A DNA stretch of 64,000 bases from positions 77,705 through 141,704 of the forward strand of contig JAKFDA010000072.1 of NCBI GenBank assembly GCA_036676355.1. The letters run 5' to 3'. Source of the stretch: Nitrosomonadales bacterium (GTDB taxonomy: Bacteria > Pseudomonadota > Gammaproteobacteria > Burkholderiales > SG8-39). Within the stretch, counting starts at the first letter, position 1. Each line of letters opens with the position of its first letter. Below are positions 1-14,294 of the stretch, one piece after another. The translations under genes were made by a program, and so were the position numbers. The notes under the pieces were generated by a model, which worked only from the letters and a program-made list of their open reading frames with translations, was not told the origin of the DNA and did no database searches.

Positions 1-878
1 ATCAGCGCGAATTCATACTCCCCAGCTTCGACATCATTCGTATCCCGCAATGGGCGGCGCGCGCCGAATACTTCGGCGACAACTTCCACACCGAAGTCGT
101 GTGGATTCCGTATCAGAGCTATGACGAAATCGGCAAACCGGGCGCTGAGTTCTATCCCGCCGGCCTGATCGCTGAAGACACGCCCGGCGCGGTGTTCGCC
201 TCGGACGATCGGCCGGCGCGCAACATTTCCAACTCGGCCTACGGTGTGCGCATGAACACGCTGCTCGCCGGCTGGGATCTCGCCGCGTTCTACTATCGCA
301 GCCACAGCGCCACGCCGACCTTCCATCGTGAAATCGATTTGAGCGGTGGCGTGCCGACGGCGATTTTCACGCCGCGCCATGAACGCATCTGGCAGGCGGG
401 CAGCACGTTGAGCAAGGATTTCGGGCCGTTCGTATTGCGCGGCGAAGCGGTCTATACGCACGGGCAGAAGTACAGCGTCGATACGCTCGATGATGTCGAC
501 GGTGTGGTGAAGCGCAACAGTCTCGACTACATCCTCAGCTTCGATATCGCCATGAGCGGCGATACGCGGTTGAACGTGCAAGGCTTCCATCGCATGATTT
601 TCGGCGACGACGGCGACATCGTGCCGAAGTCGGACGGCTTTGGCGCGAGCGTGTTGATGAGCACAAAAATCACGCCGACACTCGAGCCGCAACTGCTGTG
701 GATACAGAGTCTGTCGCACGGCGGCGATCGCATGATCCGCCCGCGCCTGAACTGGTACGTCACCCAGAACACGATGCTCGCGTTCGGGGTGGATATTTTT
801 GCCGGCCCCGATGACGGCTTTTTCGGGCGCTACGGCAATCGCGATCGCATCTATACGGAATTGCGCTACGACTTTTGA
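1..878 (+). CDS. Outer-membrane beta-barrel protein, DUF1302-like (5' partial, continues upstream of window)
   Basis: Frame 3 is open from nt 3 to the stop at 878. The sequence is beta-strand rich and ends ...YTELRYDF, an aromatic terminal residue typical of OM barrels. The family assignment rests on remembered sequence pattern only. Confidence 0.5.
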   Translation, partial: QREFILPSFDIIRIPQWAARAEYFGDNFHTEVVWIPYQSYDEIGKPGAEFYPAGLIAEDTPGAVFASDDRPARNISNSAYGVRMNTLLAGWDLAAFYYRSHSATPTFHREIDLSGGVPTAIFTPRHERIWQAGSTLSKDFGPFVLRGEAVYTHGQKYSVDTLDDVDGVVKRNSLDYILSFDIAMSGDTRLNVQGFHRMIFGDDGDIVPKSDGFGASVLMSTKITPTLEPQLLWIQSLSHGGDRMIRPRLNWYVTQNTMLAFGVDIFAGPDDGFFGRYGNRDRIYTELRYDF

Positions 879-901
879 GTCGGCTGGGTCGGATTGCATT
901 C

Positions 902-937
902 AAAAAAATGGGCAATCGCTGTTTCCAGCGATTGCCC
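902..937 (-). terminator. Rho-independent terminator for the minus-strand acyltransferase transcript
   Basis: Perfect 11-bp stem GGGCAATCGCT/AGCGATTGCCC (910-937) with a 6-nt loop. Read on the minus strand, the hairpin is followed by T7 (plus-strand A-run 902-908). It sits between convergent genes, 126 nt past the stop at 1063. Confidence 0.7.
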
Positions 938-1062
938 GATCGCGAACGGCGAGGAAGCGTTAGGCAAGTGGCTGATCAAGGCCTTTCGGTTAAGGGCATC
1001 GCCGGCGGGGCACGTCGTATCGCTTGCCCTGGCAACCCTACTTGGCGCTCGATCGCACTTCG

Positions 1063-1791
1063 CTAGGCTGCGGCCAGTTCGCTCGCGCCGTGCCGGGTCG
1101 GAGGAGGAAAGCCGCCCAGGCGCTCGCCAAGCTTGACCATATCCTGATGCAACAACACCGCTGGGGCTTGAACACGCGGACACAGGCGTTCCCCGGCCGC
1201 GACGGTGAAATCAAGCGCGCGGCGATAAAAGCGCTCGTGGCGGGGATTCACTTCGATGAACACATCCGTGACGCCTAGCTGATCGGCGATGAAATAAGCG
1301 AGTCGGAACAGGACTGCGAGTGTGGCTTGCGAATTCGCTTCCGGCGCGACGGCGAGGCAGGTCAGTTCGCAAGCGACGCCGCCGCTGTCGCGAACCATAC
1401 CCACTTCGTGGCCGTAAGCTTCATCCACATTCAAGCCGGCGATGGAATCGAAGCGCAGGGTCATCGTGCCGACCGTGTGACCACTTTGTGTTGCGAGGAT
1501 CGTGACCGCATGCGTTTCCTTGTCCGGGCGTCCCGCATCGCTCATTGATTGATAACCGCGTGCGGTATAGCGCTGTGCGACCAGTTCGCGCGCAGCAGCG
1601 AACTCGGCGTGGACACTCGCAATGCTTGCGCACAAGCCGGAGCGCACATCCTCCAGCACGCAGTTGGCGAATGAGGCCGGGGTCAGAAGTACCGGTTTCC
1701 CCTTGTTCCAGAGTTCGCTTACCGCGCTCGCGCGTTTCTTATAGGAATGGATGTCGGCGCTACCTGCCTCGGCAAGGGGAAAAATATGCAT
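1063..1791 (-). CDS. FeeM-like N-acyl amino acid synthase (GNAT/LuxI-like); probably the PEP-CTERM/exosortase-associated acyltransferase family
   Basis: 242 aa with an ATG start at 1791. The core ...GTMTLRFD...ELTCLAV...VFIEVNPRHERFYRRALDF...APAVLL matches the FeeM-type N-acyl amino acid synthase pattern. It lies next to an exosortase A locus, as described for TIGR03694 (recalled from memory). Confidence 0.65.
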   Translation of the reverse strand: MHIFPLAEAGSADIHSYKKRASAVSELWNKGKPVLLTPASFANCVLEDVRSGLCASIASVHAEFAAARELVAQRYTARGYQSMSDAGRPDKETHAVTILATQSGHTVGTMTLRFDSIAGLNVDEAYGHEVGMVRDSGGVACELTCLAVAPEANSQATLAVLFRLAYFIADQLGVTDVFIEVNPRHERFYRRALDFTVAAGERLCPRVQAPAVLLHQDMVKLGERLGGFPPPTRHGASELAAA

Positions 1792-1842
1792 GTGGTTCGT
1801 CCTGCTCTGGTTCGTTGTAAAAAATACTGCTCGGGCTGGTAG

Positions 1843-1858
1843 AGCAAGGCATGGGCCA
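1843..1858 (-). promoter_or_regulatory. Candidate sigma-54 (-24/-12) promoter of the acyltransferase gene
   Basis: The minus strand reads TGGCCC-ATGCC-TTGCT against the consensus TGGCAC-N5-TTGCW, with exact GG/GC spacing. The -12 element lies about 50 nt upstream of the ATG at 1791. An AGGA Shine-Dalgarno-like motif (within GCAGGA) lies about 9 nt before the ATG. Confidence 0.5.
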
Positions 1859-2005
1859 CCCTGAAAATGTTATGCGGTTCAGTCACTTACGGATGGTCTT
1901 AGAGAGAAGATGGAAATATTACGTCGGGATGACCAGACGATAGAGCGGGCTGATTGAGTAAGCGATTGTTTCGAGAGTGTTTTGCCCAGTCGTCATATGG
2001 CGACA

Positions 2006-2022
2006 TAGACAAACGGTGTCTA
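2006..2022. promoter_or_regulatory. Perfect palindrome TAGACA-N5-TGTCTA, candidate enhancer-binding-protein/UAS site
   Basis: A 6+5+6 inverted repeat centred about 156 bp upstream of the sigma-54 -24 element. This is the usual distance range for bEBP upstream activating sequences. The binding protein is unknown. Confidence 0.25.
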
Positions 2023-2087
2023 GCAAAAACGCGCGGCGTGCCCGGCTCTATTGGCCGAATCGCATGTCAGCGGTTCGCCGCCGCCGC

Positions 2088-3311
2088 TCAGACGTTTTGT
2101 CTGAGCGCATCCACGATCGGGGTGTCCGCAACCTTCCAGGCGGGTAGCAGACTTGCCAGCAGCGCGGCAAGAATTCCGACCGCTCCGGCTCCGGCAATGA
2201 CTTCGGGCACCAGCCGGATAAACGCGGTATAGCCCACATTGGAACTGGGCGGCGGTGGCATCGGGATGCCGATGGCTGAAATCAGCACAGCCAGCAGCAC
2301 GCCAAGCGCGGTGCCGACTGCCGCGCCAATCAGGCCAAGCAGCAGGCTTTCCGTCACGACCAGTGCAAACACATCGCGGCCGCGATTGCCGAGCGCGCGC
2401 AATGTGCCGAATTCGCCCTGGCGCTCGAATACCGCCATGTTCACGGTGTTGGTCACGCTGAGCAGAACCATGATCAGAATGATGAGACGCAGCACGCCGA
2501 ATTGGCGGTCGTAAAGCGCGACGGTCTTCTCGTAAAAATCGTTCAACTGCTGCCATGTGCGAACGGCCAGCCCTTGTTGTCTTACCGCATTTTCAATGTG
2601 TCGGGCAGACGAGCTTGTGTCGTCGGTGCGATGCAGACTGACCACGACAACGCTCACCCCCGGCGTTGCCAGCAGATCCTGCGCCGCCGCGAGCGAGAGT
2701 CTTACGGCGCGGGCGTCATAGTCCCTGGAGAAGGACTGGAACACCCCGCTGACATTGAAATCGAGCGTGTTCATCGCCCCGCCCGGCGTGCTGACCACGA
2801 GCGTGACCGGGTCGCCGGGGGCGAGCTTCAAGGTCTGCGCGACGCCTTCGCCGATGACGATGCTGTTCGCCTCATCCGGCTTGAATGGTCCGCCGGCGAC
2901 GAAGCGCAGCGACGTGCCCAGCCTCGCTTCAAGTTCGGGTTCGATACCTTCGGCGATCACTGCGAAGTCGGTGCGACCGTTATTGAGCAGGGCGTAGAAA
3001 TTCAGCCGCCCCATGACGAAGGCGACGCCGGGTTGGGCGGCGATGCGTTGCTTCAGTTCATCCGGGTTGTCGATAAGGAACTCTTCGGGTCGGCGCGAGC
3101 CTTCGCCGAAGAATTGCGGTTTCGCCACTTGCACATGGCCGCTTTGCGAATGGATGAAAGCCTCGCCCAACTGCACGAAGATATCCTGCACGAAGCCGCC
3201 GGTGAGGATGATCCCGCTGACACCGATCACGATCGCGGCCAGGGTCATTGCCGTGCGCAGCTTGTGCCGCAGGATGTTGCGCAGGGATAAGGTCAGAATC
3301 CGGCCGGTCAC
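2088..3311 (-). CDS. FtsX/MacB/LolE-like ABC transporter permease
   Basis: 407 aa, GTG start. The N-terminus TGRILTLSLRNILRHKLRT + TM1 is followed by a large periplasmic domain and three C-terminal TM helices, the typical FtsX-family layout. Confidence 0.8.
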   Translation of the reverse strand: MTGRILTLSLRNILRHKLRTAMTLAAIVIGVSGIILTGGFVQDIFVQLGEAFIHSQSGHVQVAKPQFFGEGSRRPEEFLIDNPDELKQRIAAQPGVAFVMGRLNFYALLNNGRTDFAVIAEGIEPELEARLGTSLRFVAGGPFKPDEANSIVIGEGVAQTLKLAPGDPVTLVVSTPGGAMNTLDFNVSGVFQSFSRDYDARAVRLSLAAAQDLLATPGVSVVVVSLHRTDDTSSSARHIENAVRQQGLAVRTWQQLNDFYEKTVALYDRQFGVLRLIILIMVLLSVTNTVNMAVFERQGEFGTLRALGNRGRDVFALVVTESLLLGLIGAAVGTALGVLLAVLISAIGIPMPPPPSSNVGYTAFIRLVPEVIAGAGAVGILAALLASLLPAWKVADTPIVDALRQNV

Positions 3312-3320
3312 GGCGCATCC

Positions 3321-4565
3321 TTAACGTGCATGCCGCAGCGCGTCGACGATTTCGAGCCGCGACGCGCGCCACGCCGGATAGATGCTCGCCGCCAGCGTGG
3401 TGACCACCGCGAGCAACCAGGCATCGAACGCCAACGGCAGCGTAACGCGGATTTCGCCGGTGAAGCCGCGCGCCATTCCGGGTGGCGGCGGCATCGGAAT
3501 GCCGATTTTGGAAATCAGTAGCGCGAGCGCGATGCCGAACACCAGTCCGATCGCACCGCCCATCACGCCCAGTGCCAGGCCCTCGCCGAGGAATTGCCGC
3601 AGAATCTGCCGCCGCGTGGAGCCGAGCGCGAGCGAGGTGCCGATCTCGCTGACGCGCTCGAGCACGCTCATGGTCAGAGTATTCGAAATGCTGAGCACGA
3701 TGATGATCGCGATGATCAGCTTCACCACGCCGACCTGCTTGGAGAACAGGCTGACGGTCTTGTTGTAAAAATCGGCCAACTCGTACCACGGCACGAACGA
3801 CAGCTTGAGGTTGGTTTTTCCCTGACTGGCCTGTCCACCGTACTTTGCACGCAACAACGCAAGCGTCCGGTCCGTGTGCGCGGTGTCCTGCAGCACGACG
3901 ATCCAGCTATGCGCGCCTTCGACGCGCAATAGTTGCTGTGCCATGCCAAGCGGCAGGCGCAGCGCCGAATCGTCGTAGCTTTTCGCCACCGTCGAAAATG
4001 TACCGCGCACCGGCCCCTCAACCGCGTTGATGCCGCCCGAGGGCGTGTTGGCGATCAGCACGATTGTGTCGCCGACCTGGGCGCCGAGGTTTTGCGCCAG
4101 GCCGTGGCCGAGCACCATGCCCTGCATGTCGTCGGGTGCGAGATCGCTGCCGCCGGTGATAATGGTGCCGCGGTTGAGCGAAGCTTCGCGTGCGGGCAGC
4201 ATGCCCTCGCCGATGAACGAAAGCGTAGTATCGCCGCGGCTGGCGAGTCCCGAGAAACTCAATCGCGGCGCAACGGCCACCACGTTCGGCAATCGCTCGA
4301 TGTCGCGCAGAATGGGCGATTCTTCCGGCAGCAGGTAGGCGAACGGATCGGCCTGCCCGCCTTCCAGATAACCTTGCTGCACGATCTGTATATGTCCCAG
4401 GCGCGAGCGGATCGTGTCTTCGCGCATCGCCCAGTACACCCATTCGACGAACCCGGCCGCCACCAGCAGTGCGACCACGCCGAAGGCGATCGATGCGATG
4501 CCGAACAGGCTGCGACGGCGATGCCGCAGCACATTTCGAAGCGCGATATGAAGATCGGTCAGCAA
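3321..4565 (-). CDS. FtsX/MacB/LolC-like ABC transporter permease (paralogue of the downstream gene)
   Basis: 414 aa, TTG start. It begins LTDLHIALRNVLRHRRRS + TM and has the same 1+3 TM architecture. Its stop lies 9 nt before the next permease start. Confidence 0.8.
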   Translation of the reverse strand: MLTDLHIALRNVLRHRRRSLFGIASIAFGVVALLVAAGFVEWVYWAMREDTIRSRLGHIQIVQQGYLEGGQADPFAYLLPEESPILRDIERLPNVVAVAPRLSFSGLASRGDTTLSFIGEGMLPAREASLNRGTIITGGSDLAPDDMQGMVLGHGLAQNLGAQVGDTIVLIANTPSGGINAVEGPVRGTFSTVAKSYDDSALRLPLGMAQQLLRVEGAHSWIVVLQDTAHTDRTLALLRAKYGGQASQGKTNLKLSFVPWYELADFYNKTVSLFSKQVGVVKLIIAIIIVLSISNTLTMSVLERVSEIGTSLALGSTRRQILRQFLGEGLALGVMGGAIGLVFGIALALLISKIGIPMPPPPGMARGFTGEIRVTLPLAFDAWLLAVVTTLAASIYPAWRASRLEIVDALRHAR

Positions 4566-4677
4566 GGTGCAGGGGCAATCAGGGAGGCGTTGCGCACGAT
4601 GGCGGGCGTGGTCGGCACGATACTAGCATCGGCCGGCAGACCGCCAATCGCCGACGCTTTCTGCGAGCGTATTTCAT

Positions 4678-5541
4678 TTGAACGCATTCGATTACGACAC
4701 CGCCTTCACGCGCAACATAGGATGGGTCACCCCGGCCGAGCAGCAAAAGCTGCGCCGTGCGCGCGTGGCAATCGCCGGATTGGGCGGCGTCGGCGGTTTT
4801 CACTTACTCACGCTTGCGCGGCTGGGCATCAGCGCGTTCAACCTGGCGGAATTCGATCGCTTCGGGCTGGCCAACTTCAATCGCCAGGCCGGCGCGATGG
4901 TTTCCACGCTGGGGCGGCCCAAGCTCGAGGTGATGATCGAAATGGCACGCGATATCAACCCCGAACTCGACATACGTACTTTTCCGGAAGGCGTGCAACC
5001 GCACAACGCCGACGACTTTCTGCGCGACGTGGATGTGTATGTGGATGGACTCGATTTCTTCGCTTTCGCCGCTCGCCGGCTGACCTTCGGCGCCTGCACG
5101 CGTCTGCGCGTGCCGGCCACGACGGCCGCGCCGATCGGCATGGGCGTCGCGCTGCTGAACTTCATGCCGGGCGGCATGAGCTTCGAAGATTATTTTCGCC
5201 TCGACGGCCTGTCGGAAGCCGAGATGGCACTCCGTTTCCTTGTCGGCCTAACCCCGTCGATGCTGCAGCGGACGTATCTGATGCAACGCGAAGCGGTTCG
5301 CCTCGCGCGTGGCGCCGGACCTTCCACGCCGATGGCGTGTCAGTTGTGCGCGGGTGTTGCGGCGACCGAAACGCTCAAGATCATCCTTCGCCGCGGCGAC
5401 GTCGTGGCTGTCCCGCGCGGTCTGCATTTCGATGCCTACCGCTGCAGGTACATGCGCACCTGGCGACCGGGCGGCAATGCCAATCCGCTGCAGAAAGTGC
5501 TGATGTGGATCATCGCGCGTCAACTCAGGCAGACGCGCTGA
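4678..5541 (+). CDS. ThiF/MoeB/HesA-family E1-like adenylyltransferase (stand-alone, about 287 aa)
   Basis: TTG start. Carries the nucleotide-binding motif VAIAGLGGVGG and FNRQ...GRPK typical of the ThiF family. It has no rhodanese or CxxC C-terminal domain. Confidence 0.8.
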   Translation: MNAFDYDTAFTRNIGWVTPAEQQKLRRARVAIAGLGGVGGFHLLTLARLGISAFNLAEFDRFGLANFNRQAGAMVSTLGRPKLEVMIEMARDINPELDIRTFPEGVQPHNADDFLRDVDVYVDGLDFFAFAARRLTFGACTRLRVPATTAAPIGMGVALLNFMPGGMSFEDYFRLDGLSEAEMALRFLVGLTPSMLQRTYLMQREAVRLARGAGPSTPMACQLCAGVAATETLKIILRRGDVVAVPRGLHFDAYRCRYMRTWRPGGNANPLQKVLMWIIARQLRQTR

Positions 5542-5581
5542 TGAAGAGGCTCGCACTATCGATAACAGCGAAAGTAAACGC

Positions 5582-6625
5582 GTGCTGACCGAGGAAGCGA
5601 TGCACGACATTCTCGAAGCCGGCGTGTGGGCGCCGTCTGCCGAGAATCGCCATGTGTTCCGCCACAGCGTGCAGGGCGCGAGCGTGCGGCTGCATCTGGA
5701 TCCTGCCCTTGCACGCGTCAACGCGGATCAGTATTACGTGGCGCTGCTGTCGATCGGGGCGGTGATCGAGAACATGCGTCTCGCAGCGGGCATGCATGCA
5801 CTGGATGTCGACTGGCAACGCGGCGATAGCGGCGCCGCTGCCGACGTGGTCGTGACGTTCAGACCCGATCGGCAATCGCCCGATGAGCTTGCCGAGTACA
5901 TCAAGCAACGACACACCAACCGTCGTCCGGTTTTCCAGGGGCCGCGTCTGCACGCGGCGGAGCAGCGCGCGATCGAAGCGTCGCTCGCGCCGCTCGGCGA
6001 ACGCTGGCGCGTGCACTGGTTCGACGACAGGCGTTCGCGTATCGCGTTGTGCGAATTGATGGCGGAAGCCGAGACGCATCGCTTCGCCAACGCGCAACTG
6101 CATCAAGCGATGTTCGACGGCATTCGATTCGATATCGGCTGGCGTAGCGGTGCGAGCGAAGGACTGCCGCCCGCGGCGTTGCAAATCGAACCGGGAATGC
6201 GCGCCGCGTTCGCATCGCTGCGTCATTGGCCGTTGGTGCGCACGCTGGCGCGCTTCGGTCTGCATCGCGGCATCGCCTGGCGGGCGAGCTATATGCCGGC
6301 GCGCTGGGCGCCGCATGTGTGCGTGGTGGCATCGCGCACACCGGTCGATACGAATGGCGACATGATCGAAGCGGGGCGCGCGATGGAACGCGCATGGCTC
6401 GCCGCGACGCAGCTCAATCTCGCCGTGCAACCGTTCGCAGCATCGGTCGCGCTGGCGCGACCGGGACCCGGCGCGCTCGAGGAATCGGCGCGCGCCGCGC
6501 TGGTGCGCGCCTGGCAGAAGCTCATGCCCGACGCGCAACCGGTGATGGTGTTCAGACTGGGGCATGCCGCCCCGCCGATCGTCCGCGCCGGTCGTCCTGC
6601 GCCCGCCGCGCTCGCGCTGCGCTGA
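5582..6625 (+). CDS. Nitroreductase-superfamily (FMN) protein, two-lobed Acg/SagB-like type
   Basis: 347 aa. Motifs ILEAGVWAPSAENRH and RHTNRRPF are nitroreductase hallmarks. Start is GTG at 5582 or ATG at 5600. It begins 40 nt after the ThiF stop, so it is probably co-transcribed. Confidence 0.7.
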   Translation: MLTEEAMHDILEAGVWAPSAENRHVFRHSVQGASVRLHLDPALARVNADQYYVALLSIGAVIENMRLAAGMHALDVDWQRGDSGAAADVVVTFRPDRQSPDELAEYIKQRHTNRRPVFQGPRLHAAEQRAIEASLAPLGERWRVHWFDDRRSRIALCELMAEAETHRFANAQLHQAMFDGIRFDIGWRSGASEGLPPAALQIEPGMRAAFASLRHWPLVRTLARFGLHRGIAWRASYMPARWAPHVCVVASRTPVDTNGDMIEAGRAMERAWLAATQLNLAVQPFAASVALARPGPGALEESARAALVRAWQKLMPDAQPVMVFRLGHAAPPIVRAGRPAPAALALR

Positions 6626-6962
6626 GAACCCGGTTAGGTGCGCTCGCTGCCGCGTAACGCGGTGCCGCGACAGCGCACGCCGCAGTCTTCATCACATTTA
6701 ACAACTCGGTCGACGGCTTTGGGGAATGCTGTATTCGATGTCGCGTTCACCGCTGTCGCAACGCACTTTGGCGGGCGTCGAGGGTCGGGTTAAAGATTGT
6801 CAACTTCGCGCATTTGCACAATCGGCGGAGTTAGTCTCGCGGCTCCGCTTCACTGCCCGCGCAACGTCAATCGAGTGCGCGATCAATATCCGAAGGCTTG
6901 AGTTTAAAGGTCGGCGCTTCTCGAAAATACCAATGAGCGATCCGCACAAAGGGAGATGTTTG

Positions 6963-7595
6963 ATGGCCGTTGTTTATGACTCTGTATTTCGTCGCGCGCT
7001 CCTGTTGCTTGCAATGTTCTGTTGCGCGTTGTTGACCGCATGCGGTACCGGAATCGGTTATCCGCCGGCCCCCACGGCCGCGGCAACGCCGGATTACCGT
7101 TACGTCGTCGGTCCCGGTGATCAGGTCAGCATCATCGTGTGGCGCAATCCGGAGCTATCGCTTGCCGTCCCGGTGCGTCCGGACGGTCTGATCACGACGC
7201 CGCTGGTCGAGGACTTGCCCGCGGCCGGCAAGGATCCGACCGTGCTCGCCCGCGATATCGAAAAGGCGCTCGGCAAATACATCCGCGATCCGGTCGTCAC
7301 GGTGATCGTCACCAACTTCGTCGGACCGTACAGCGAGCAGATCCGCGTGATCGGCGAGGCCGGCAAACCGCAGACGCTGCCGTACCGCCAGAACATGACT
7401 TTACTCGACGTGATGATTGCCGTCGGCGGCCTCACCGATTTCGCCGACGGCAACAGCGCGGTACTGCTGCGTACCGCGGAGGGCGGCAAGCAGTACACCG
7501 TGCGCTTGCAGGATCTCATCAAGCGCGGCGACGTGACGGCCAACGCGGACGTCAAGCCGGGCGACGTGCTGATCATTCCGCAAAGCTGGTTTTGA
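6963..7595 (+). CDS. Polysaccharide export lipoprotein (Wza/EpsE-like, PEP-CTERM locus type)
   Basis: ATG at 6963 is preceded by GGGAGA. Lipobox LLTAC. The motif YRYVVGPGDQVSIIVWRNPELS...RPDG is the Poly_export/SLBB signature. The longer ORF-track start at 6726 is unlikely. Confidence 0.8.
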   Translation: MAVVYDSVFRRALLLLAMFCCALLTACGTGIGYPPAPTAAATPDYRYVVGPGDQVSIIVWRNPELSLAVPVRPDGLITTPLVEDLPAAGKDPTVLARDIEKALGKYIRDPVVTVIVTNFVGPYSEQIRVIGEAGKPQTLPYRQNMTLLDVMIAVGGLTDFADGNSAVLLRTAEGGKQYTVRLQDLIKRGDVTANADVKPGDVLIIPQSWF

Positions 7596-7784
7596 AGAAG
7601 GCTGGCCGAGTATCAAGGATGGTCGCGAGTGCGCGAAGCTGTACGAGCGACGACAAAGCAACCGACGTCCTATGGGTGATGCACCCGCGAAAGCGCCGGT
7701 CGAGAAGTCTTCATCGAAGCCCGCTTGTCGGGTGAGTGAAGTTGAAGTAAGTGCCGTAAGCAACGAAACAAGAGGTGTGGATTC

Positions 7785-9338
7785 ATGGACGATTTGCTGC
7801 AACAACTCATGACATACCTGCGCGGCATGTGGCGCCGCCGCTGGCCCGGCCTTGCCGTGGCCTGGATCGTCGGCATCGTCGGCGCGTTCACGCTGTTCGA
7901 GATGCCGGACAAATATGAAGCGAGCGCGCGCGTATACGTCGACACCCAGTCGGTGTTGAAGCCGCTGATGTCGGGGCTCGCCGTACAGCCCAACGTCGAT
8001 CAGCAGATCTCGATTCTGAGCCGCACGCTGATCAGCCGTCCCAACGTCGAGAAACTGATCCGCATGGCCGACCTGGATCACAACGTCCAGACCAATCGCG
8101 AGAAGGAGCGCCTGATCGACGATCTGATGAAGACGCTGCAACTCAAGGGCAGCGATCGACAGAATCTGTACACCATCACTTATCGCGACACCAATCCCGC
8201 CGAAGCGAAGCGTGTCGTGCAGGCGCTGCTTTCGTTGTTTGTCGAATCGGGTATCGGCGACAAGCGCAAAGGCACGGATACCGCGCGGCGTTTCATCGAC
8301 GATCAGATTCAGACCTACGAGGCCAAACTCAAGGAAGCGGAAAACCGCGTCAAGGAATTCAAGCTCGCGCACATGGGCATGACCGGCGGTGACGGCAACG
8401 ACTACTTCTCCCAGATGCAGCGCCTCAACGAAGAACACAACCGCGTCCTGCTCGAACTGCGCGCAGCCGAACAGGCGCGCGACTCGTACAAGAACGAGTT
8501 GGGCGGCGAGGAAGCGGTCTATATGCCGGACGGCACGGCGCTCGCGCCGACGGGCCCCGCATCTGAAATCGATCTGCGGATCGAAGCGCTGCGGCGCAAC
8601 ATGGACGAACTGCTGCGTCGTTATACCGATGCTCATCCGGATGTAGTCGGCACACGCCGTGTGATCGCTTCACTGGAGGAAGAGAAGAAAACCAAGGCGT
8701 CGGTGCAGAAGGTCGACGGCACGCCGGGCGCGCGGCCGCTCAATACCAATCCCGTGTTCCAGCAGCTGAAGGTGGCGCTGGCCGAGTCCGAGGCCAACGT
8801 CGCCGCGCTGCAAGCGCGCGCCGATGAACTGCAAGTGCGCGTGGAGAAGATGAGAACGGCGGCGCAGCGGCTTCCCGAAGTCGAAGCGCAATACGCCGCG
8901 CTCAACCGTGATTACGACGTGCAGAAGCGGAATTACCAGACGCTCGTCCAGCGTCGCGAGTCCGCGACCATGTCGGGCGAAATGGATGCGGCCGCCGGCG
9001 TTGCCGATTTCCGCATCATCGATCCGCCCTCGGTCTCGGCGACGCCGGTCGCCCCCAACCGCCTGCTGATGCTGCCCGCCGTGCTGTTCGTCGCGCTAGG
9101 CGCCGGGCTGTTCTTCTCCTTCATCATCAGCCAGGCGCTGCCGACTTTCCACGATGCCCGCACGCTGCGTGAAATCGCCGCGCGCCCTGTGCTCGGCACG
9201 GTTTCCCTGTTGACGAATGCAACCATGAACCGCCAGCGACGGCGCAATGTCGCGCTCTTCGCCGGAGGACTGGCCGGATTGTTTGCGGTGTACGGAGCGG
9301 CGCTGATGCTGCTCACCATCGGTGGTCCGCGTATCTGA
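7785..9338 (+). CDS. Polysaccharide chain-length determinant (Wzz/EpsF-like, PEP-CTERM locus subfamily)
   Basis: 517 aa with an N-terminal TM, a long coiled-coil periplasmic region and a C-terminal TM pair. The N-terminus ...FEMPDKYEASARVYVD is the Wzz motif. Confidence 0.8.
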   Translation: MDDLLQQLMTYLRGMWRRRWPGLAVAWIVGIVGAFTLFEMPDKYEASARVYVDTQSVLKPLMSGLAVQPNVDQQISILSRTLISRPNVEKLIRMADLDHNVQTNREKERLIDDLMKTLQLKGSDRQNLYTITYRDTNPAEAKRVVQALLSLFVESGIGDKRKGTDTARRFIDDQIQTYEAKLKEAENRVKEFKLAHMGMTGGDGNDYFSQMQRLNEEHNRVLLELRAAEQARDSYKNELGGEEAVYMPDGTALAPTGPASEIDLRIEALRRNMDELLRRYTDAHPDVVGTRRVIASLEEEKKTKASVQKVDGTPGARPLNTNPVFQQLKVALAESEANVAALQARADELQVRVEKMRTAAQRLPEVEAQYAALNRDYDVQKRNYQTLVQRRESATMSGEMDAAAGVADFRIIDPPSVSATPVAPNRLLMLPAVLFVALGAGLFFSFIISQALPTFHDARTLREIAARPVLGTVSLLTNATMNRQRRRNVALFAGGLAGLFAVYGAALMLLTIGGPRI

Positions 9339-9348
9339 GAGGTGTGGC

Positions 9349-10278
9349 ATGAGTCTGATTGAGAAAGCAGCCAAGCGGCTTGAAGAACTGAAGCGGACAG
9401 GTGTCGCGGTGCCGGACGATCTGACCGCCGAGCGCGTCGAGCACGAAGATATTGCGCATTACGACAGCGGCGGCGAGCCGGAGTACACGCCTTTGCTGGC
9501 TACGCCGGTCGAGGAAGCGGATGGCCCGGTGCAATACAGTCGACAGGTCGACTTCGATCTGTCGCGCCTTGCCGCCATGGGCATGGTGACGCCGGAGGCG
9601 CCGCATTCGCCCATCGCCAATGAATTTCGCGTGGTCAAGCGGCCGCTGCTTGCCAATGCACAAGGCAAGTCGGCGGTGCCGGTGAAGAACGGCAATCTGA
9701 TGATGGTGACGAGCGCGCTGCCGGGCGAAGGCAAGAGCTTCAGCGCCCTGAATCTCGCCATGAGCATTGCGATGGAACTGGACAGCACGGTGTTGCTGGT
9801 CGATGCCGATGTGGCCAATCCGAATCTGTTGAAAGTGCTCGGCCTGCCGCCGGCGCGCGGATTGATGGATGTGCTCACCAGCGATGAAGTAACCCTGAGC
9901 GATGTCATTCTTCGCACGAGCGTCGAGAAGCTTTCGATCCTGCCGGCCGGTACCCATCATCAACGCGCGACTGAAGTTCTGGCAAGCGATGTGATGGCGC
10001 AACTGGTCGCGGAAATGGCGGCACGCTATCCCGATCGCGTCATCATCTTCGACTCGCCGCCGCTGCTGCCAACCACCGAGTCGCGCGTGCTCGCCACGCA
10101 TATGGGTCAGGTGGTCGTGGTGGTCGAGGCGGATACCACCACGCACAGCAATCTGAAACAGGCGCTGGGACATCTGGAAGATTGCCCGGTCGTCATGACG
10201 ATGTTGAACAAAGCCGTTCGATCCGAGGTTGCGCAGTACTACGGCTATTACGGTTACTCGCGTGCAACGCAAGCTTGA
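9349..10278 (+). CDS. Tyrosine-autokinase-like P-loop ATPase (EpsG/Wzc C-terminal-domain type)
   Basis: ATG at 9349 follows a GAGAGGTG Shine-Dalgarno motif. Walker A is SALPGEGKS and Walker B is VLLVDAD/IIFDSPP. The C-terminal tail YYGYYGYS is tyrosine rich. Confidence 0.8.
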   Translation: MSLIEKAAKRLEELKRTGVAVPDDLTAERVEHEDIAHYDSGGEPEYTPLLATPVEEADGPVQYSRQVDFDLSRLAAMGMVTPEAPHSPIANEFRVVKRPLLANAQGKSAVPVKNGNLMMVTSALPGEGKSFSALNLAMSIAMELDSTVLLVDADVANPNLLKVLGLPPARGLMDVLTSDEVTLSDVILRTSVEKLSILPAGTHHQRATEVLASDVMAQLVAEMAARYPDRVIIFDSPPLLPTTESRVLATHMGQVVVVVEADTTTHSNLKQALGHLEDCPVVMTMLNKAVRSEVAQYYGYYGYSRATQA

Positions 10279-10366
10279 GGAAGCGCCGACGAGTAGTCGA
10301 AGCTTCATCGCTCCGGAAACGCCGCCATGGACGTCGCTGTCACGTCCGGCGGGTTCCTGAGCGCGC

Positions 10367-11971
10367 ATGCGCCTATCAATATCAATAACGCTCAGGGATC
10401 TTGTGGGACAACAATTCGCCCGACGGAGAAGGGGCGCGGCCGGCGCTCGGCTTAAGCGTGCAATCGCAGCGCTCGCGGTCGCTTCGGTGTTTATCGATTC
10501 GCCTGCGCACGCGGCGAAATGGACGCTGGAGCCGTCCATTCGCGTGCAGGAAACGTTCACCAACAACGTGGGGCTGGATGAATCCGGCGACGAAGAATGG
10601 GATTTCATTACCGAAGTGGAACCGGGCATCTTCATCCGTGGCGAAGGCGACCGGCTCAATATGTCGCTCGACTATCGGGCGCTCGGGTTGTTGTACCTGG
10701 ATGACATGGATCGCAACCGCGTTAGTCATCGCTTGAATGGCAAGGGCACCTATGAAGCGGTAGAGGACCTCTTTTATGTGGATGCCGGCGCCACCGCCAC
10801 CGAGCAGTTCGAGTCCCCCTTCGGTGCGGTACCGATCGATTCCACCAGCGACACCGATAACCGTTACACCGCGTACTCGTATTATGTCGCGCCGTATTTG
10901 CGCGGCAGGCTCTTCGGCGACTCCACCTATCTGCTGCGTCACAGCAGCATCTGGACCAACTCGGGTCAGAGTTCGGTGCTGGACGACGCGTACACCAAGC
11001 AGTGGACCGGCCGCTTCAACACGCCGATCCGCACCTTCGGACTCGGTCTCACCTATGATCGCAGCGAAACCGAGTACGACAAAGGCATACAGGAACTGTC
11101 CACCGAAATCGCCAGGGCCATCGGCTATTGGCGGATCGATCCGCAGTTCATCCTGAATGCGCGGGCGGGTTACGAGAAAGTGGACTCGGTGTTCAGCGAC
11201 CGCTCGGAAGATATCTACGGCGCGGGCTTCCAGTGGTTCCCCTCGCCGCGCACTTCGATCGAAGCATTCGCCGAAGAGCGCGTGTTTGGCACCGGCTATT
11301 CCTTCAATTTCGCGCACCGGCGTCCGCTCGCCACTTTCCGCATGCGGGCGTCAAAGGATCTGACGACCTATAACCAGAACCTGTTCACGTTGCAAGAAAA
11401 CGCGGTGCCGATCGATCTGTACATGAACGTCCCGCAATTCGTATCGCAGTGGCCGGATCCGCTCGTAAGAGAGGCCGCGATCCAGGGGTTGATCCAGGAC
11501 GGCCAGCTACCCGAGACGCTGCTTGTGGGCGTGCCGTTCTACAGCCAGCAGATTCAGATCGTCGAGCGCCAGGATGCGTCGATCGCGCTGACCGGCGCCC
11601 GCAACACGGTGGTGTTCTCCGTGTATCGAAGCGAGAACGAAAACTTTTCCGGCGACGACGACGAGGCGGTGCAGCTCGACGCGCTGTTCGGTCGTCACAT
11701 CGAGCAGCGCGGAGCGCAGGTGAGCTGGACGCACAAGCTCACCGGCCGCACGCGCACCAACCTCAGTCTTTATCGCACCCATGTGGAGGAAAAGGAGCCG
11801 TTCAGCCGGGAATCCACCGCGCACACGCTGCGCGGGAGCATCAACACCGCGCTCGGCCCCAAGACCAATGCCTACGTCGGCGCACGCTACGTGATTTTCG
11901 ATGGCGACGAAGGCTCGTTTCACGACTATCGCGAGGCGGCTGTGTTCGCCGGATTCACACACAGGTTCTAG
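10367..11971 (+). CDS. PEP-CTERM-system-associated outer-membrane beta-barrel protein (TIGR03016-like)
   Basis: 534 aa with signal peptide ...FIDSPAHAAKW. It shows alternating beta-strand periodicity throughout and ends ...FAGFTHRF. Confidence 0.6.
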   Translation: MRLSISITLRDLVGQQFARRRRGAAGARLKRAIAALAVASVFIDSPAHAAKWTLEPSIRVQETFTNNVGLDESGDEEWDFITEVEPGIFIRGEGDRLNMSLDYRALGLLYLDDMDRNRVSHRLNGKGTYEAVEDLFYVDAGATATEQFESPFGAVPIDSTSDTDNRYTAYSYYVAPYLRGRLFGDSTYLLRHSSIWTNSGQSSVLDDAYTKQWTGRFNTPIRTFGLGLTYDRSETEYDKGIQELSTEIARAIGYWRIDPQFILNARAGYEKVDSVFSDRSEDIYGAGFQWFPSPRTSIEAFAEERVFGTGYSFNFAHRRPLATFRMRASKDLTTYNQNLFTLQENAVPIDLYMNVPQFVSQWPDPLVREAAIQGLIQDGQLPETLLVGVPFYSQQIQIVERQDASIALTGARNTVVFSVYRSENENFSGDDDEAVQLDALFGRHIEQRGAQVSWTHKLTGRTRTNLSLYRTHVEEKEPFSRESTAHTLRGSINTALGPKTNAYVGARYVIFDGDEGSFHDYREAAVFAGFTHRF

Positions 11972-11997
11972 GTGATTAGCGGAACAGGACACTTCTA

Positions 11998-13125
11998 ATG
12001 TACGAATCGTTTTACGGCCTCAGCGGCAAACCGTTCCAGCTCAACCCCGACCCGGCGTTCTATTACGCCAGCCGCGGTCACAAGCGCGCGTTCGCCTACC
12101 TGCAATACGGTCTGTTTCAGGGCGAGGGCTTCATTGTCATCACCGGCGAAGTGGGCGCCGGCAAGACCACGCTGCTGCGCGGTCTGCTCGAACAACTCGA
12201 CAGCAACAAAGTCGTCGCGGCGCAATTGGTCAGTACGCACCTGGACGCGGACGACATGCTCAAGGCGGTCGCCGCATCGTTCGGTCTGCCGATCAAATCG
12301 GCGGAGAAAGCGCAACTGCTGGTGCAACTCGAAAGTTATTTCGTCATGCTCGCCACCAAGCGCAAGCGCGCGCTGCTGATCGTGGATGAAGCACAGAATC
12401 TCACGCCGCGCGCGGTCGAAGAGTTGCGCATGCTGTCGAATTTCCAGCTCGACAATCACGCGCTGCTGCAGAGTTTTCTCATCGGTCAGCCGGAATTGCG
12501 CGAAACCATGCGCAGCCCGCACATGCAGCAACTGCGACAGCGTGTGCTCGCGTCCTATCACCTCGGGCCGCTCGATCAGGACGAAGGGCGGGCGTATATC
12601 GAACACCGCCTGCGGCGTGTCGGCTGGCAAGGCGATCCGGCTTTCGACACCGAGGCCTTCGAGGAAATACATCGCGCCACCAAAGGCATTCCGCGCCGCA
12701 TCAATACGCTGTGCAACCGCCTGATGATGTCGGGCTACCTCGGCGAAACGCATCGTTTCGAGGCGGGCGACGTGCTCACCGTGGCCGAGGAAATCAAGGA
12801 CGAACTCGGCGTCGAACTGGCGCCGGCCAGCGATGGGCAGTCCACGCGCGCCTATCCGGCATCGATCGCCCCCGCACCCGAGTCGATGCACAACGGCTTC
12901 CCGCGCGTGCCGCAGGCGAGCGAGTTCAATGGCGGCCGGCTTGCGGTCGATGCGGCGCACGCCGATCGCGCGCAGCAACTGTTGAGCGGCAGCGTGCTTT
13001 CCGGTCTGGAAGGGCGCATCACCAATCTGGAGCAGACGCTGCACGCCACGCTGTCGCTGCTGCAGCAACTTGCGCAGGTGCGCGCCGAATCGGCGGAGAC
13101 CACCGCAGAAAATCAGAGGCATTGA
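11998..13125 (+). CDS. ExeA-like AAA ATPase, PEP-CTERM locus subfamily (EpsI/secretion ATPase)
   Basis: Begins MYESFYGLSGKPFQLNPDP, with Walker A GEVGAGKTT and Walker B LLIVDEAQ. This is the characteristic N-terminus of this family. Confidence 0.85.
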   Translation: MYESFYGLSGKPFQLNPDPAFYYASRGHKRAFAYLQYGLFQGEGFIVITGEVGAGKTTLLRGLLEQLDSNKVVAAQLVSTHLDADDMLKAVAASFGLPIKSAEKAQLLVQLESYFVMLATKRKRALLIVDEAQNLTPRAVEELRMLSNFQLDNHALLQSFLIGQPELRETMRSPHMQQLRQRVLASYHLGPLDQDEGRAYIEHRLRRVGWQGDPAFDTEAFEEIHRATKGIPRRINTLCNRLMMSGYLGETHRFEAGDVLTVAEEIKDELGVELAPASDGQSTRAYPASIAPAPESMHNGFPRVPQASEFNGGRLAVDAAHADRAQQLLSGSVLSGLEGRITNLEQTLHATLSLLQQLAQVRAESAETTAENQRH

Positions 13126-14290: not shown

Positions 14291-14294
14291 AGCC

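Follow-up and report, generated by a model that had tools for sequence, protein, structure and literature searches.

Genes and signals at the locus

The window, that is, the whole 64,000-nucleotide stretch of DNA analysed here, carries near its left end five genes whose open reading frames are present at the coordinates given by the original prediction, followed by an exosortase locus. The features are as follows.

3..878, + strand: DUF1302-family outer-membrane beta-barrel, C-terminal 291 codons, cut by the window start (Pfam)
910..937, - strand: strong terminator (hairpin and T-run); 12-bp stem, then ATTTTTTT
1063-1791, - strand: FeeM-type N-acyl amino acid synthase (NAS), 242 aa (PF21926)
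1843..1858, - strand: sigma-54-like -24/-12 element TGGCCCatgccTTGCT, a weak to moderate lead
1989..2004, - strand: 16-bp palindrome GTCGCCATATGACGAC, candidate activator site, in a block conserved with the related locus L001
2088-3311, - strand: FtsX/MacB-type permease 2 of a type VII ABC transporter, 407 aa (MacB_PCD + FtsX)
3321-4565, - strand: FtsX/MacB-type permease 1, 414 aa (MacB_PCD + FtsX)
4566-4677, no strand: divergent intergenic region, 112 bp, holding a sigma-54-like match
4678-5541, + strand: ThiF-family ATP-dependent adenylating cyclase, TyzB-like, 287 aa (PRK08223)
5582-6625, + strand: tandem-lobe nitroreductase-fold flavin-dependent oxidase (FDO), TyzC-like desaturase, 347 aa (AF2/Foldseek)
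6726..13125, + strand: start of the XrtA/PEP-CTERM exopolysaccharide locus (above curated cut-offs)
16232..17818, + strand: exosortase A fused to EpsI (TIGR03109 + TIGR02914)
41932..42774, - strand: THxN-family PEP-CTERM protein (NF038125)

The identities originally proposed for the five genes are borne out by the HMM results. The predicted 112-bp divergent gap corresponds to 4566-4677 and the 40-nt gap between the ThiF and nitroreductase (NTR) genes to 5542-5581, while the strings EVNPRHERFYRRALDF and APAVLL, quoted as an acyltransferase signature, are found in the 242-aa translation. YcaO and carrier protein genes, said to be absent, are indeed missing among the genes annotated in 1-36 kb. 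No conserved small ORF was seen in the 296-bp gap at 1792-2087, and no Rfam families were found in window positions 1-8000.

The sigma-54-like element precedes the FeeM start codon by ~52 nt, and one occurs at the equivalent place in L001 (TGGCGCggggcTTGCT) and in L008 (TGGCGCacatcTTGCA). A match of at least 9/11 is present upstream of 7 of the 58 FeeM-type NAS genes versus 2.5% of control windows; the element is a weak to moderate lead. The palindrome stands ~130 nt further upstream. It falls within a conserved block shared by the window and L001, the surrounding intergenic DNA having diverged, and the L001 version is a perfect palindrome; it is a candidate activator site. The terminator, with 8 GC pairs in its stem, separates the convergent DUF1302 and FeeM genes. 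In the divergent region, the sigma-54-like match CGGCACgatacTAGCA (4613-4628, + strand) is only a lead, since the regions in front of ThiF in other loci show no conservation of such a motif, its score distribution being equal to that of controls.

The acyltransferase, ThiF and nitroreductase-fold enzymes

When the family of the acyltransferase was checked by HMM, it scored 142 bits with the Pfam FeeM model PF21926 (cut-off 27); it also matches the FeeM structure 2G0B (E 2e-5). Its anticipated place in the exosortase-associated family TIGR03694 did not hold. This model (cut-off 111.95 bits) gives no match at E<=1 with the window FeeM or with either L001 FeeM, yet it reaches 200-265 bits with the NAS genes of L084, L085, L088, L105, L150 and L161. 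The window acyltransferase is therefore not a member of TIGR03694 and, judged by its sequence, belongs to the FeeM/PRK14852-N-terminal clade. The link between long-chain NAS and exosortases is credited to Craig et al. 2011 in PMC7293339.

The ThiF protein scores 133 bits with PF00899 and 444 bits with NCBIfam PRK08223 (cut-off 266). Among the fusion models, it reaches 298 bits with PRK14851, which we take to contain OxzB, and 262 bits with PRK14852, but only 55 bits with the Rv1355c family. Its adenylation site is intact (GxGxxG, NRQ, Lys, Asp), comprising G34-G40, N68-R69-Q70, K82, D123 and D126. The GxGGxGG and NRQ motifs, K82 and D123/D126 are invariant across 26 homologues and align to TcdA/ThiF motifs; the Asp is probably equivalent to the one mutated as D217A in TrzS. 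The protein resembles TyzB and the ThiF domain of OxzB. Its closest solved relative is TcdA, itself a cyclodehydratase (PMC12596934).

The ThiF superfamily acts mostly on polypeptides or tRNA (PMC12596934), and one CxxC (C221, C224) is invariant among the 26 homologues. These features would suit a model in which the substrate of ThiF and NTR is a protein or peptide, ThiF being a sulfur-carrier activator of the MoeB/ThiF type or the pair making a TOMM, pantocin or microcin C-type RiPP, with the acyltransferase and permeases as unrelated neighbours. We regard this as highly improbable. The MoeB, ThiF and MoeZ models give only 52-77 bits against cut-offs of 152-647, and neither a small carrier ORF of the ThiS/MoaD type nor a YcaO gene or conserved small ORF is found nearby. 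A sulfur-carrier activator was rejected on these grounds, and a TOMM (azoline/azole) RiPP on the lack of YcaO in the 1-36 kb annotation, the lack of a conserved small ORF and the Acg/FDO-like character of the NTR. Likewise, the TOMM/pantocin analogy of the original prediction gives way to the chemistry of the characterised homologues, in which a small N-acyl amino acid is converted by ThiF to a 5(4H)-oxazolone and desaturated between C-alpha and C-beta by the FDO.

For the NTR, the Pfam Nitroreductase match is weak, and two further models stay below cut-off: that of the Rv1355c family, matched in its C-terminal half, gives 113 bits (cut-off 476), and that of the Acg family 104 bits (cut-off 199). 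The AF2 model (pLDDT 93.3, pTM 0.93) has as its best Foldseek match the Acg homologue 2YMV, which covers it at full length (E 6e-14, TMq 0.67), whereas other nitroreductases cover only half of the protein. All positions conserved at 90% or more in the family are retained. The enzyme is thus a monomeric, tandem-lobe Acg-like nitroreductase of the FDO subgroup, adjoining ThiF here and fused to it in the families of the models PRK14851, PRK14852 and PRK07877. Between loci the FDO is only 24-40% identical, versus 60-70% for ThiF, and therefore its substrate or chemistry may differ, which counts against a lipid-oxazolone product.

That the three enzymes are functionally linked, as had been proposed, is supported by Rosetta-stone fusions: the Rv1355c family (the ThiF-FDO fusion 'MoeY' named in the original prediction does exist), PRK14851, and the triple NAS-ThiF-NTR fusion PRK14852/DVU_RS16045. 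Successive segments of the 989-aa PRK14852 model are matched by the three window enzymes. In Desulfovibrio vulgaris DVU_RS16045, residues 32-211, 312-586 and 614-971 are colinear with the window acyltransferase, ThiF and FDO, at 29%, 50% and 25% identity, respectively. Synteny points the same way. Of the 49 ThiF loci in GTDB species genomes that have flanks of 8 kb or more on each side, 47 had an FDO neighbour and 40 a NAS within 10 kb; an FtsX pair was present in 27, any exporter part in 32 and XrtA export genes in 12. The NAS-domain fusion and the near-universal adjacency of FDO and NAS argue for a small-molecule N-acyl amino acid as the substrate.

The window trio matches the enzymes of the N-acyl oxazolone pathways OxzAB (2021), TyzABC (2023) and TrzAS/Rv1355c (2025), so the chemistry is already known. 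The placement with OxzB, TyzB and TyzC rests on the NCBIfam fusion models, fold and context. The original statement that none of this had been characterised is accordingly incorrect, the OxzAB (10.1101/2020.06.11.147165), TyzABC (PMC10404671) and TrzAS (PMC12856293) enzymes having been reconstituted.

The proposed exporter and the XrtA/PEP-CTERM context

The two permeases, 36.8% identical to each other, remain below the cut-off of the LolCE model (TIGR02212, cut-off 362), with 111 bits for permease 2 and 99 bits for permease 1. The DUF1302 frame is open from base 3, and the fragment aligns, at 82% identity, to residues 198-488 of the 488-aa L001 protein; this barrel is the probable outer-membrane component of the exporter. 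The L001 ThiF is 86% identical to that of the window, and the gene order there is HK, FeeM2, LolA_like, ABC ATPase, DUF1302, FeeM, FtsX and FtsX, then, across the divergent region, ThiF, NTR and the XrtA locus. The ATPase gene thus precedes DUF1302 and is adjoined by the LolA_like gene, which suggests that a LolD-like ATPase, a LolA-like gene and the rest of DUF1302 lie just beyond the left edge of the window. The L001 ATPase scores 231 bits with the LolD model (cut-off 307.75). The exporter is Lol-like in architecture but, judging from these scores, its proteins are not members of the Lol families.

On the other side of the enzymes, the presence of an exosortase locus was confirmed by above-cut-off matches to TIGR03027, TIGR03007, TIGR03018 and TIGR03016 from 6726 on. 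The genes of 6726..13125 encode an export protein, a chain-length determinant, a tyrosine autokinase, the TIGR03016 outer-membrane protein and the TIGR03015 ATPase. XrtA itself (16232-17818) scores 338 bits with TIGR03109 (cut-off 208) and 129 bits with TIGR02914; TIGR03015, 03019, 03088, 04063, 03087, 03108 and 03097 are above cut-off as well. In related loci, PEP-CTERM genes of the floc_PepA, EDSAP-1 and THxN families follow ThiF; 44 of 65 loci have at least one in the first 5 kb downstream. Their density there is 1.38 per 10 kb versus 0.11 elsewhere in the same loci. The window has no such gene directly after the NTR, the nearest being the THxN gene 35 kb away (NF038125 127.8 bits; cut-off 85). 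Together with the FtsX pair in 27/49 loci, the 44/65 count upholds the suggested tie of the permeases and the XrtA/PEP-CTERM system to the module.

The neighbourhood was also surveyed starting from the exporter. Among 13 metagenome loci that span 15 kb or more around the LolA-like gene, there is an ABC gene in 13, DUF1302 in 12, an FtsX pair in 10, NAS in 10 and a PepA-like PEP-CTERM gene in 8, with ThiF-NTR in only 4, so that the primary partner of the exporter would be NAS plus the PEP-CTERM gene rather than the oxazolone step. In Janthinobacterium, ThiF-NTR and a PEP-CTERM gene occur with no exporter or detectable NAS within 10 kb. The exporter might then serve the PEP-CTERM/EPS system, or carry plain N-acyl amino acids, with ThiF-NTR as merely co-located, co-regulated tailoring genes. 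We consider this rather unlikely because the FtsX pair is the immediate neighbour of ThiF, in divergent or tandem arrangement, in the 27 loci just mentioned, which span several orders, and because many exporter loci have no EPS genes within 10 kb. Moreover, LolCDE, YbbAP-TesA and other extractors of the type VII ABC class are suited to a hydrophobic small molecule (PMC12646458).

On balance, we favour the view that the locus is a split OxzAB/TyzABC-type oxazolone-lipid pathway with an envelope exporter, tied to the XrtA/PEP-CTERM matrix system. We infer the product, cargo and biological role of the module, and every step of the mechanism, by analogy with homologous enzymes that have been reconstituted, or else on the basis of architecture and synteny. 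The FeeM-type synthase would N-acylate an amino acid, in all likelihood an aromatic one like that of every characterised case, using fatty acyl-CoA or acyl-ACP. ThiF would adenylate the free carboxylate, whereupon the amide oxygen closes the 5(4H)-oxazolone ring, and the Acg-like flavin oxidase would introduce the C-alpha/C-beta double bond before or after this closure. The two paralogous permeases are predicted to form a LolCDE-like type VII ABC machine that would depend on the LolD-like ATPase, on a periplasmic protein of the LolA-like kind and on the DUF1302 barrel. This machine would remove the lipid from the inner membrane and convey it through the periplasm as far as the outer membrane or the cell surface. 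The module may work with the XrtA/PEP-CTERM exopolysaccharide and floc-protein system.

Several observations count against an oxazolone lipid. The NAS gene lies on the opposite strand, two permease genes away from ThiF-NTR, and seems to be driven by a promoter of its own. O2 is used by the characterised FDOs, but the triple fusion is found in an anaerobe, D. vulgaris. As for the exporter step, the ATPase and LolA-like genes are outside the window and are taken from the 86%-identical relative.

Some producers have yielded only ring-opened N-acyl dehydrotyrosines: producers of thalassotalic acid, kyonggic acid and stieleriacine carry ThiF and NTR (PMC12479983). Furthermore, oxazolones hydrolyse in hours at pH 8 (10.1101/2020.06.11.147165). 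The free oxazolone might thus not be the end product. With the enzymes unchanged, the azlactone would be a chemically activated acyl donor that, once exported, either reacts with water to give an N-acyl dehydro-amino acid serving as surfactant or signal, or acylates amines without ATP; the targets would be amines located outside the cytoplasm, either on the deacetylated exopolysaccharide or on a PEP-CTERM protein of the PepA type. The PEP-CTERM genes close to ThiF are consistent with such targets, as are the position of the D. vulgaris fusion between XrtA genes and THxN PEP-CTERM genes and the polysaccharide deacetylase and FemAB-like transferase encoded in the window XrtA locus. This model, drawn from chemical plausibility and gene neighbourhood, seems unlikely to us. 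Lipidated EPS or PEP-CTERM protein is without a published report, PepA gave several bands of undefined nature (PMC9850573), and the window NTR is not directly followed by a PEP-CTERM gene.

We found no published description of the exporter/PEP-CTERM context of this gene set. Its recurrence in many bacteria hints at the purpose of the oxazolone lipids.

Comparison with known systems

The exporter shares with LolCDE-LolA, MacB and YbbAP-TesA (PMC12646458) two paralogous four-TM FtsX permeases with MacB-type periplasmic domains, and relatives of the locus carry a LolD-like ATPase and a LolA_like (PF17131) periplasmic protein. It differs from LolCDE-LolA in scoring well below the Lol equivalog cut-offs, in having a DUF1302 barrel and not LolB as outer-membrane partner, and in being embedded in a lipid-biosynthesis module. 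In Azoarcus, where NAS-FtsX-FtsX diverges from ThiF-NTR as in the window, the slot of the window FeeM after the FtsX pair is filled by a TIGR03694 protein, a model that the window acyltransferase does not match.

DVU_RS16045 (PRK14852; D. vulgaris Hildenborough pDV, 989 aa) unites NAS, ThiF and FDO in one polypeptide annotated 'ThiF family adenylyltransferase'. As in the window, XrtA-associated genes (kinase, chain length, export) are adjacent, and two THxN-family PEP-CTERM proteins flank the fusion according to annotation and HMM. In contrast, it is a fused protein encoded on a megaplasmid of an anaerobic Desulfovibrionaceae, and it has no adjoining FtsX pair, an ABC permease gene being annotated ~7.6 kb downstream, where the examined stretch ends.

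TrzA/TrzS (Rv1356c/Rv1355c, 'MoeY') form an N-acyl tryptazolone pathway in which TrzS cyclises and then desaturates N-acyl tryptophan (PMC12856293). They differ from the window enzymes by a distant ThiF subcluster (55 bits), fusion, actinobacterial origin and short acyl chains. OxzA/OxzB of Pseudoalteromonas rubra and other proteobacteria make tyrazolones and phenazolones and have the three catalytic modules in common with the window (10.1101/2020.06.11.147165). The window ThiF also scores far better with the proteobacterial ThiF-NTR fusion model PRK14851 than with the Rv1355c/TrzS model (298 versus 55 bits). However, OxzB is a ThiF-NTR fusion directly following oxzA, whereas the window domains are separate genes, and no exporter or PEP-CTERM link has been reported for oxzAB (10.1101/2020.06.11.147165).

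In the N-acyl tyrazolone pathway TyzABC of M. tuberculosis (Rv2336/Rv2338c/Rv2337c), TyzA is the acyltransferase, TyzB the ATP-dependent ThiF cyclase and TyzC the O2-dependent FDO desaturase (PMC10404671). There, as here, ThiF and FDO are neighbouring genes of a single operon, with the acyltransferase encoded on the other strand. The differences are that tyzC precedes tyzB, while ThiF comes first in the window; that two permease genes stand between NAS and the ThiF-FDO pair in the window; and that MmpL9 is the neighbour in M. tuberculosis, versus a type VII ABC system in the window, whose host is a betaproteobacterium with an XrtA locus.

Gene content of the module

Five genes at the left end of the window form two divergent groups separated by 112 bp, the ThiF and nitroreductase genes of the rightward group being 40 nt apart. 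The coordinates of the five ORFs are exactly those of the original prediction, and the gene identities that it proposed were borne out by HMM scans (FeeM, MacB_PCD + FtsX, PF00899/PRK08223 and nitroreductase similarity).

Features of the module and of the adjoining exosortase A (XrtA) locus
3-878: DUF1302 gene, last 291 codons (82% identity to the DUF1302 protein of L001, a locus from a close relative)
1063-1791, minus strand: acyltransferase, 242 aa (Pfam FeeM, 142 bits)
2088-3311, minus strand: FtsX/MacB-type permease (MacB_PCD + FtsX)
3321-4565, minus strand: FtsX/MacB-type permease (MacB_PCD + FtsX)
4678-5541, plus strand: ThiF protein, 287 aa (PF00899; NCBIfam stand-alone model PRK08223, 444 bits against a cut-off of 266)
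5582-6625, plus strand: nitroreductase, 347 aa (C-terminal half of the Rv1355c family and Acg family, both below cut-off)
from 6726: XrtA/PEP-CTERM exopolysaccharide (EPS) locus
16232-17818: exosortase A
41932-42774: THxN PEP-CTERM gene

No Rfam family is found within positions 1-8000 at E ≤ 0.1, and the 296-bp gap upstream of FeeM contains no conserved small ORF or precursor peptide. The GC content of this gap is only 53%, and GC3 of the FeeM gene (1063-1791) is 0.675 versus 0.76-0.80 for its neighbours. For the EPS export gene (6726-7595), the longest ORF has 289 aa, of which TIGR03027 covers residues 125-289 only, and the L001 orthologue has 206 aa. Translation probably begins near 6975 instead; the nitroreductase gene would then be followed by some 350 nt without coding sequence.

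The acyltransferase is a Pfam FeeM-family protein and matches the sequence of the FeeM crystal structure. Membership of the exosortase-associated family TIGR03694 is ruled out: a search with this model finds nothing in the protein, even at E ≤ 1. With the same model, the synthases of related loci reach 200-265 bits, which indicates that two N-acyl amino acid synthase (NAS) clades serve these loci, the one in the window being of the FeeM/PRK14852-N-terminal type. Azoarcus has a TIGR03694 protein in the slot that FeeM occupies here, after the permease pair. Three tandem TIGR03694 NAS genes adjoin a DUF1302 - ABC - LolA-like set on a metagenome contig without ThiF-NTR (L088:5032-7718).

Relationship to N-acyl oxazolone enzymes

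The acyltransferase, ThiF protein and nitroreductase (NTR) match consecutive segments (33-200, 312-586 and 614-795) of the single 989-aa NCBIfam model PRK14852. A natural example of this fusion, DVU_RS16045 (989 aa; L086:8068-11037, NC_005863.1), is encoded on the megaplasmid of Desulfovibrio (Nitratidesulfovibrio) vulgaris Hildenborough and aligns colinearly with the window's FeeM (29% identity), ThiF (50%) and NTR (25%). Enzymes of this kind are known. N-acyl tyrazolones and phenazolones are the products of the acyltransferase OxzA together with OxzB, in which ThiF and nitroreductase are fused (10.1101/2020.06.11.147165). Mycobacterium tuberculosis has a split version composed of the acyltransferase TyzA, the ATP-dependent ThiF cyclase TyzB and TyzC, an O2-dependent desaturase that is a nitroreductase-fold flavin-dependent oxidase (FDO) (PMC10404671). 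The fusion Rv1355c, named in the original prediction, is TrzS, which yields N-acyl tryptazolones (PMC12856293), and the producers of kyonggic acid, thalassotalic acid and stieleriacine carry split ThiF and NTR genes beside NAS (PMC12479983). Because this Oxz/Tyz/Trz literature accounts for the trio, the initial statement that nothing of the kind had been characterised was mistaken. The analogy to TOMM and pantocin chemistry holds only as a superficial likeness: the substrate here is small, an N-acyl amino acid, and is closed to a 5(4H)-oxazolone ring. Judging from sequence, the three enzymes quite probably make an N-acyl amino acid and turn it into a cyclised and/or desaturated derivative. The amino acid may well be aromatic and the free oxazolone would be the final product. 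The assignment draws on homology to reconstituted enzymes, on the fusions and on synteny.

The ThiF protein retains the adenylation-site elements GxGGxGG, NRQ, K82 and DxxD, which align with those of TcdA and ThiF and do not vary across 26 homologues. Its score on PRK14851, the proteobacterial ThiF-NTR fusion model, is 298 bits versus only 55 bits on the Rv1355c family, and the MoeB, ThiF and MoeZ models give 52-77 bits, far under their cut-offs.

A sequence search of the PDB found no match to the NTR, so a fold search was needed. Its predicted structure is a tandem-lobe monomer (pLDDT 93.3, pTM 0.93), and the sole full-length structural match is 2YMV, the Acg homologue of M. smegmatis (E 6e-14, TMq 0.67). 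The FDO domain of TrzS likewise has 2YMV as its closest structure (PMC12856293), and the TyzC model has been described as Acg-like (PMC10404671). Every position that is at least 90% conserved among 71 family members is kept in the window (APSxxN, G59, E63, R110, R114, R167, W216, G265, R270, W272 and Q283-P284). Identity between the FDOs of different loci is only 24-40% (the 34-40% subgroup includes Thiobacillus, Nitrotoga and Rhizobacter), whereas ThiF identity across the loci of Beta- and Gammaproteobacteria is 60-70%. This suggests that it is the FDO, rather than ThiF, that may diversify with the substrate. It must be noted that the NAS-ThiF-NTR fusion occurs in the anaerobe D. vulgaris, although the known FDOs use O2.

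Conserved neighbours and the putative exporter

Alignment of ThiF homologues (59-95% identity) retrieved 80 loci from GTDB species genomes, mostly of Beta- and Gammaproteobacteria and including Azoarcus, Thauera, Aromatoleum, Zoogloea, Thiobacillus, Nitrotoga, Accumulibacter, Methyloversatilis and Janthinobacterium. Profile HMMs were built for the analysis, that of the NTR from domain-trimmed seeds, and counts were restricted to the 49 loci whose flanks reach 8 kb or more on each side. The FDO is present in 47 of these and NAS in 40; the FtsX pair is found in 27/49, any of FtsX, LolA-like or DUF1302 in 32/49, and XrtA-type export and chain-length genes in 12/49. These counts show that the linkage on which the original prediction depended is clearly conserved in other genomes.

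The two permeases are paralogues, 36.8% identical. L001 represents the closest long relative, with 86% ThiF identity. Its gene order is histidine kinase, second FeeM, LolA_like (PF17131, 178 bits), LolD/DevA-like ABC ATPase and DUF1302 (488 aa), followed by FeeM - FtsX - FtsX / divergent ThiF - NTR - XrtA locus; by analogy, the genes to the left of FeeM presumably lie at or beyond the left edge of the window. The FtsX paralogues, together with the ATPase, LolA-like and DUF1302 genes of the relative, indicate a LolCDE-like type VII ABC system. Since all Lol equivalog scores are far under cut-off, the transporter would work like Lol without being Lol.

In a reverse test, the LolA-like protein served as the starting point for a scan of metagenome contigs, and features were counted in the 13 loci that span 15 kb or more. 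The ABC ATPase is found in 13/13, DUF1302 in 12/13, the FtsX pair and NAS in 10/13 each, a PepA-like PEP-CTERM gene in 8/13 and ThiF-NTR in 4/13. The exporter's primary association is therefore with the synthase and the PEP-CTERM gene, the oxazolone-forming ThiF-NTR pair being an optional tailoring addition, though a frequent one. The ABC system may export the oxazolone, but this optional character limits the claim that oxazolone is the cargo.

In the window, the XrtA locus directly follows the NTR gene. In 44 of 65 loci, the 5 kb downstream of ThiF contain a PEP-CTERM-tailed ORF (at least 200 aa); the density there is 1.38 per 10 kb versus 0.11 elsewhere in the same loci (about 12-fold). Examples at about 0-3 kb downstream of NTR, in loci L007 to L085, are L007:12191-13057, L050:13091-14131 and L085:12216-13136. 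One similarity cluster contains 43 of the downstream ORFs, and the NCBIfam names are flocculation-associated PepA, EDSAP-1 family or THxN family. In Janthinobacterium, the PEP-CTERM gene is present despite the lack of the exporter and of a detectable NAS. DVU_RS16045 is flanked by XrtA-associated kinase, chain-length and export genes on one side and by two THxN PEP-CTERM genes on the other, with a sigma-54-interacting regulator nearby; the association thus recurs in a different phylum. A report on PepA in Aquincola (PMC9850573) makes no mention of ThiF, nitroreductase or acyltransferase neighbours, and a full-text literature search found no paper pairing oxazolone/tyrazolone with FtsX, DUF1302 or LolA.

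An EryCIII-like glycosyltransferase is encoded close to ThiF-NTR and the PEP-CTERM gene in Azoarcus (L084:11993-14344, where there is also an NAD-dependent epimerase/dehydratase) and in Janthinobacterium (L050:14260-15492). Their presence hints that the products may be glycosylated. Some oxzB genes likewise have glycosyltransferases nearby, according to De Rond et al.

A polysaccharide deacetylase (PF01522 + DUF3473) immediately precedes a FemAB-family TIGR03019 protein at 14178-16210 of the window. Their fusion as a 604-aa ORF (14396-16210) was rejected, the deacetylase being a separate ORF (14178-15149). With a deacetylase in the XrtA locus, the polymer would carry free, acylatable amines.

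Putative regulatory signals and possible role

The permease-FeeM unit ends at a strong terminator (910-937). A sigma-54-like -24/-12 element (1843-1858) lies about 52 nt upstream of FeeM and has the same place in L001 and a further locus, L008; matches of at least 9/11 occur upstream of 7 of 58 FeeM-type synthases versus 2.5% of control windows (about five-fold). Some 130 nt further upstream, a 16-bp palindrome (1989-2004, GTCGCCATATGACGAC) is perfect in L001 and sits in a stretch of about 22 nt that is conserved although the intergenic DNA around it has diverged; the palindrome is a possible enhancer-binding-protein site. The sigma-54 motif upstream of ThiF (9/11 in the window) is a weak lead, as its score distribution over 81 loci equals that of controls. 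A sigma-70 promoter scan gave nothing above chance, and Haft's PEP-CTERM upstream motif 1 (ending TTTACA) is not recognisable upstream of FeeM or of the window's THxN gene. Taken together, the regulatory evidence is weak.

From sequence and synteny, it seems moderately likely that the module as a whole combines synthesis of an aromatic-type N-acyl oxazolone lipid, ABC export and service to the XrtA/PEP-CTERM system. The oxazolone may serve the matrix, and the context suggests a place for oxazolone lipids in matrix or floc biology, instead of or in addition to stress signalling. A more specific scheme, which we regard as improbable, assumes that the oxazolone is a pre-activated azlactone that is made in the cytoplasm and crosses the envelope through the Lol-like ABC / LolA-like / DUF1302 route. 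Outside the cell, where there is no ATP, it would covalently lipidate amines of deacetylated XrtA exopolysaccharide or, alternatively, of PepA/EDSAP-1/THxN PEP-CTERM proteins, and the matrix of the floc or biofilm would thereby be anchored to the outer membrane. If true, the lipid oxazolone would supply the chemistry, so far missing, that connects N-acyl amino acid synthases with the exosortase system.

We know of no export route for N-acyl oxazolones; for M. tuberculosis, nothing beyond an mmpL9 gene nearby has been remarked on. The NAS-exosortase link was reportedly drawn by Craig et al. in 2011, as cited by later papers, to our knowledge without a mechanism. The enzymology of N-acyl oxazolones dates from 2021-2025, and their physiological role has been called "a major unresolved question" (PMC12856293). 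The conserved context bears directly on what they are for, and makes this question and that of the NAS-exosortase link accessible to knock-out and lipidomics work in tractable floc formers such as Zoogloea, Aquincola, Azoarcus or Thauera. In searchable papers, no description was found of this conserved tie between the enzymes and a Lol-like exporter, PepA-type PEP-CTERM proteins and an XrtA locus. The enzymatic core is a further member of a known pathway type. Unlike in OxzB, ThiF and NTR are separate genes in the window, and the context of Lol-like exporter, PepA-type floc proteins and XrtA locus is shared by Beta- and Gammaproteobacteria, and Desulfovibrionaceae show an echo of it.
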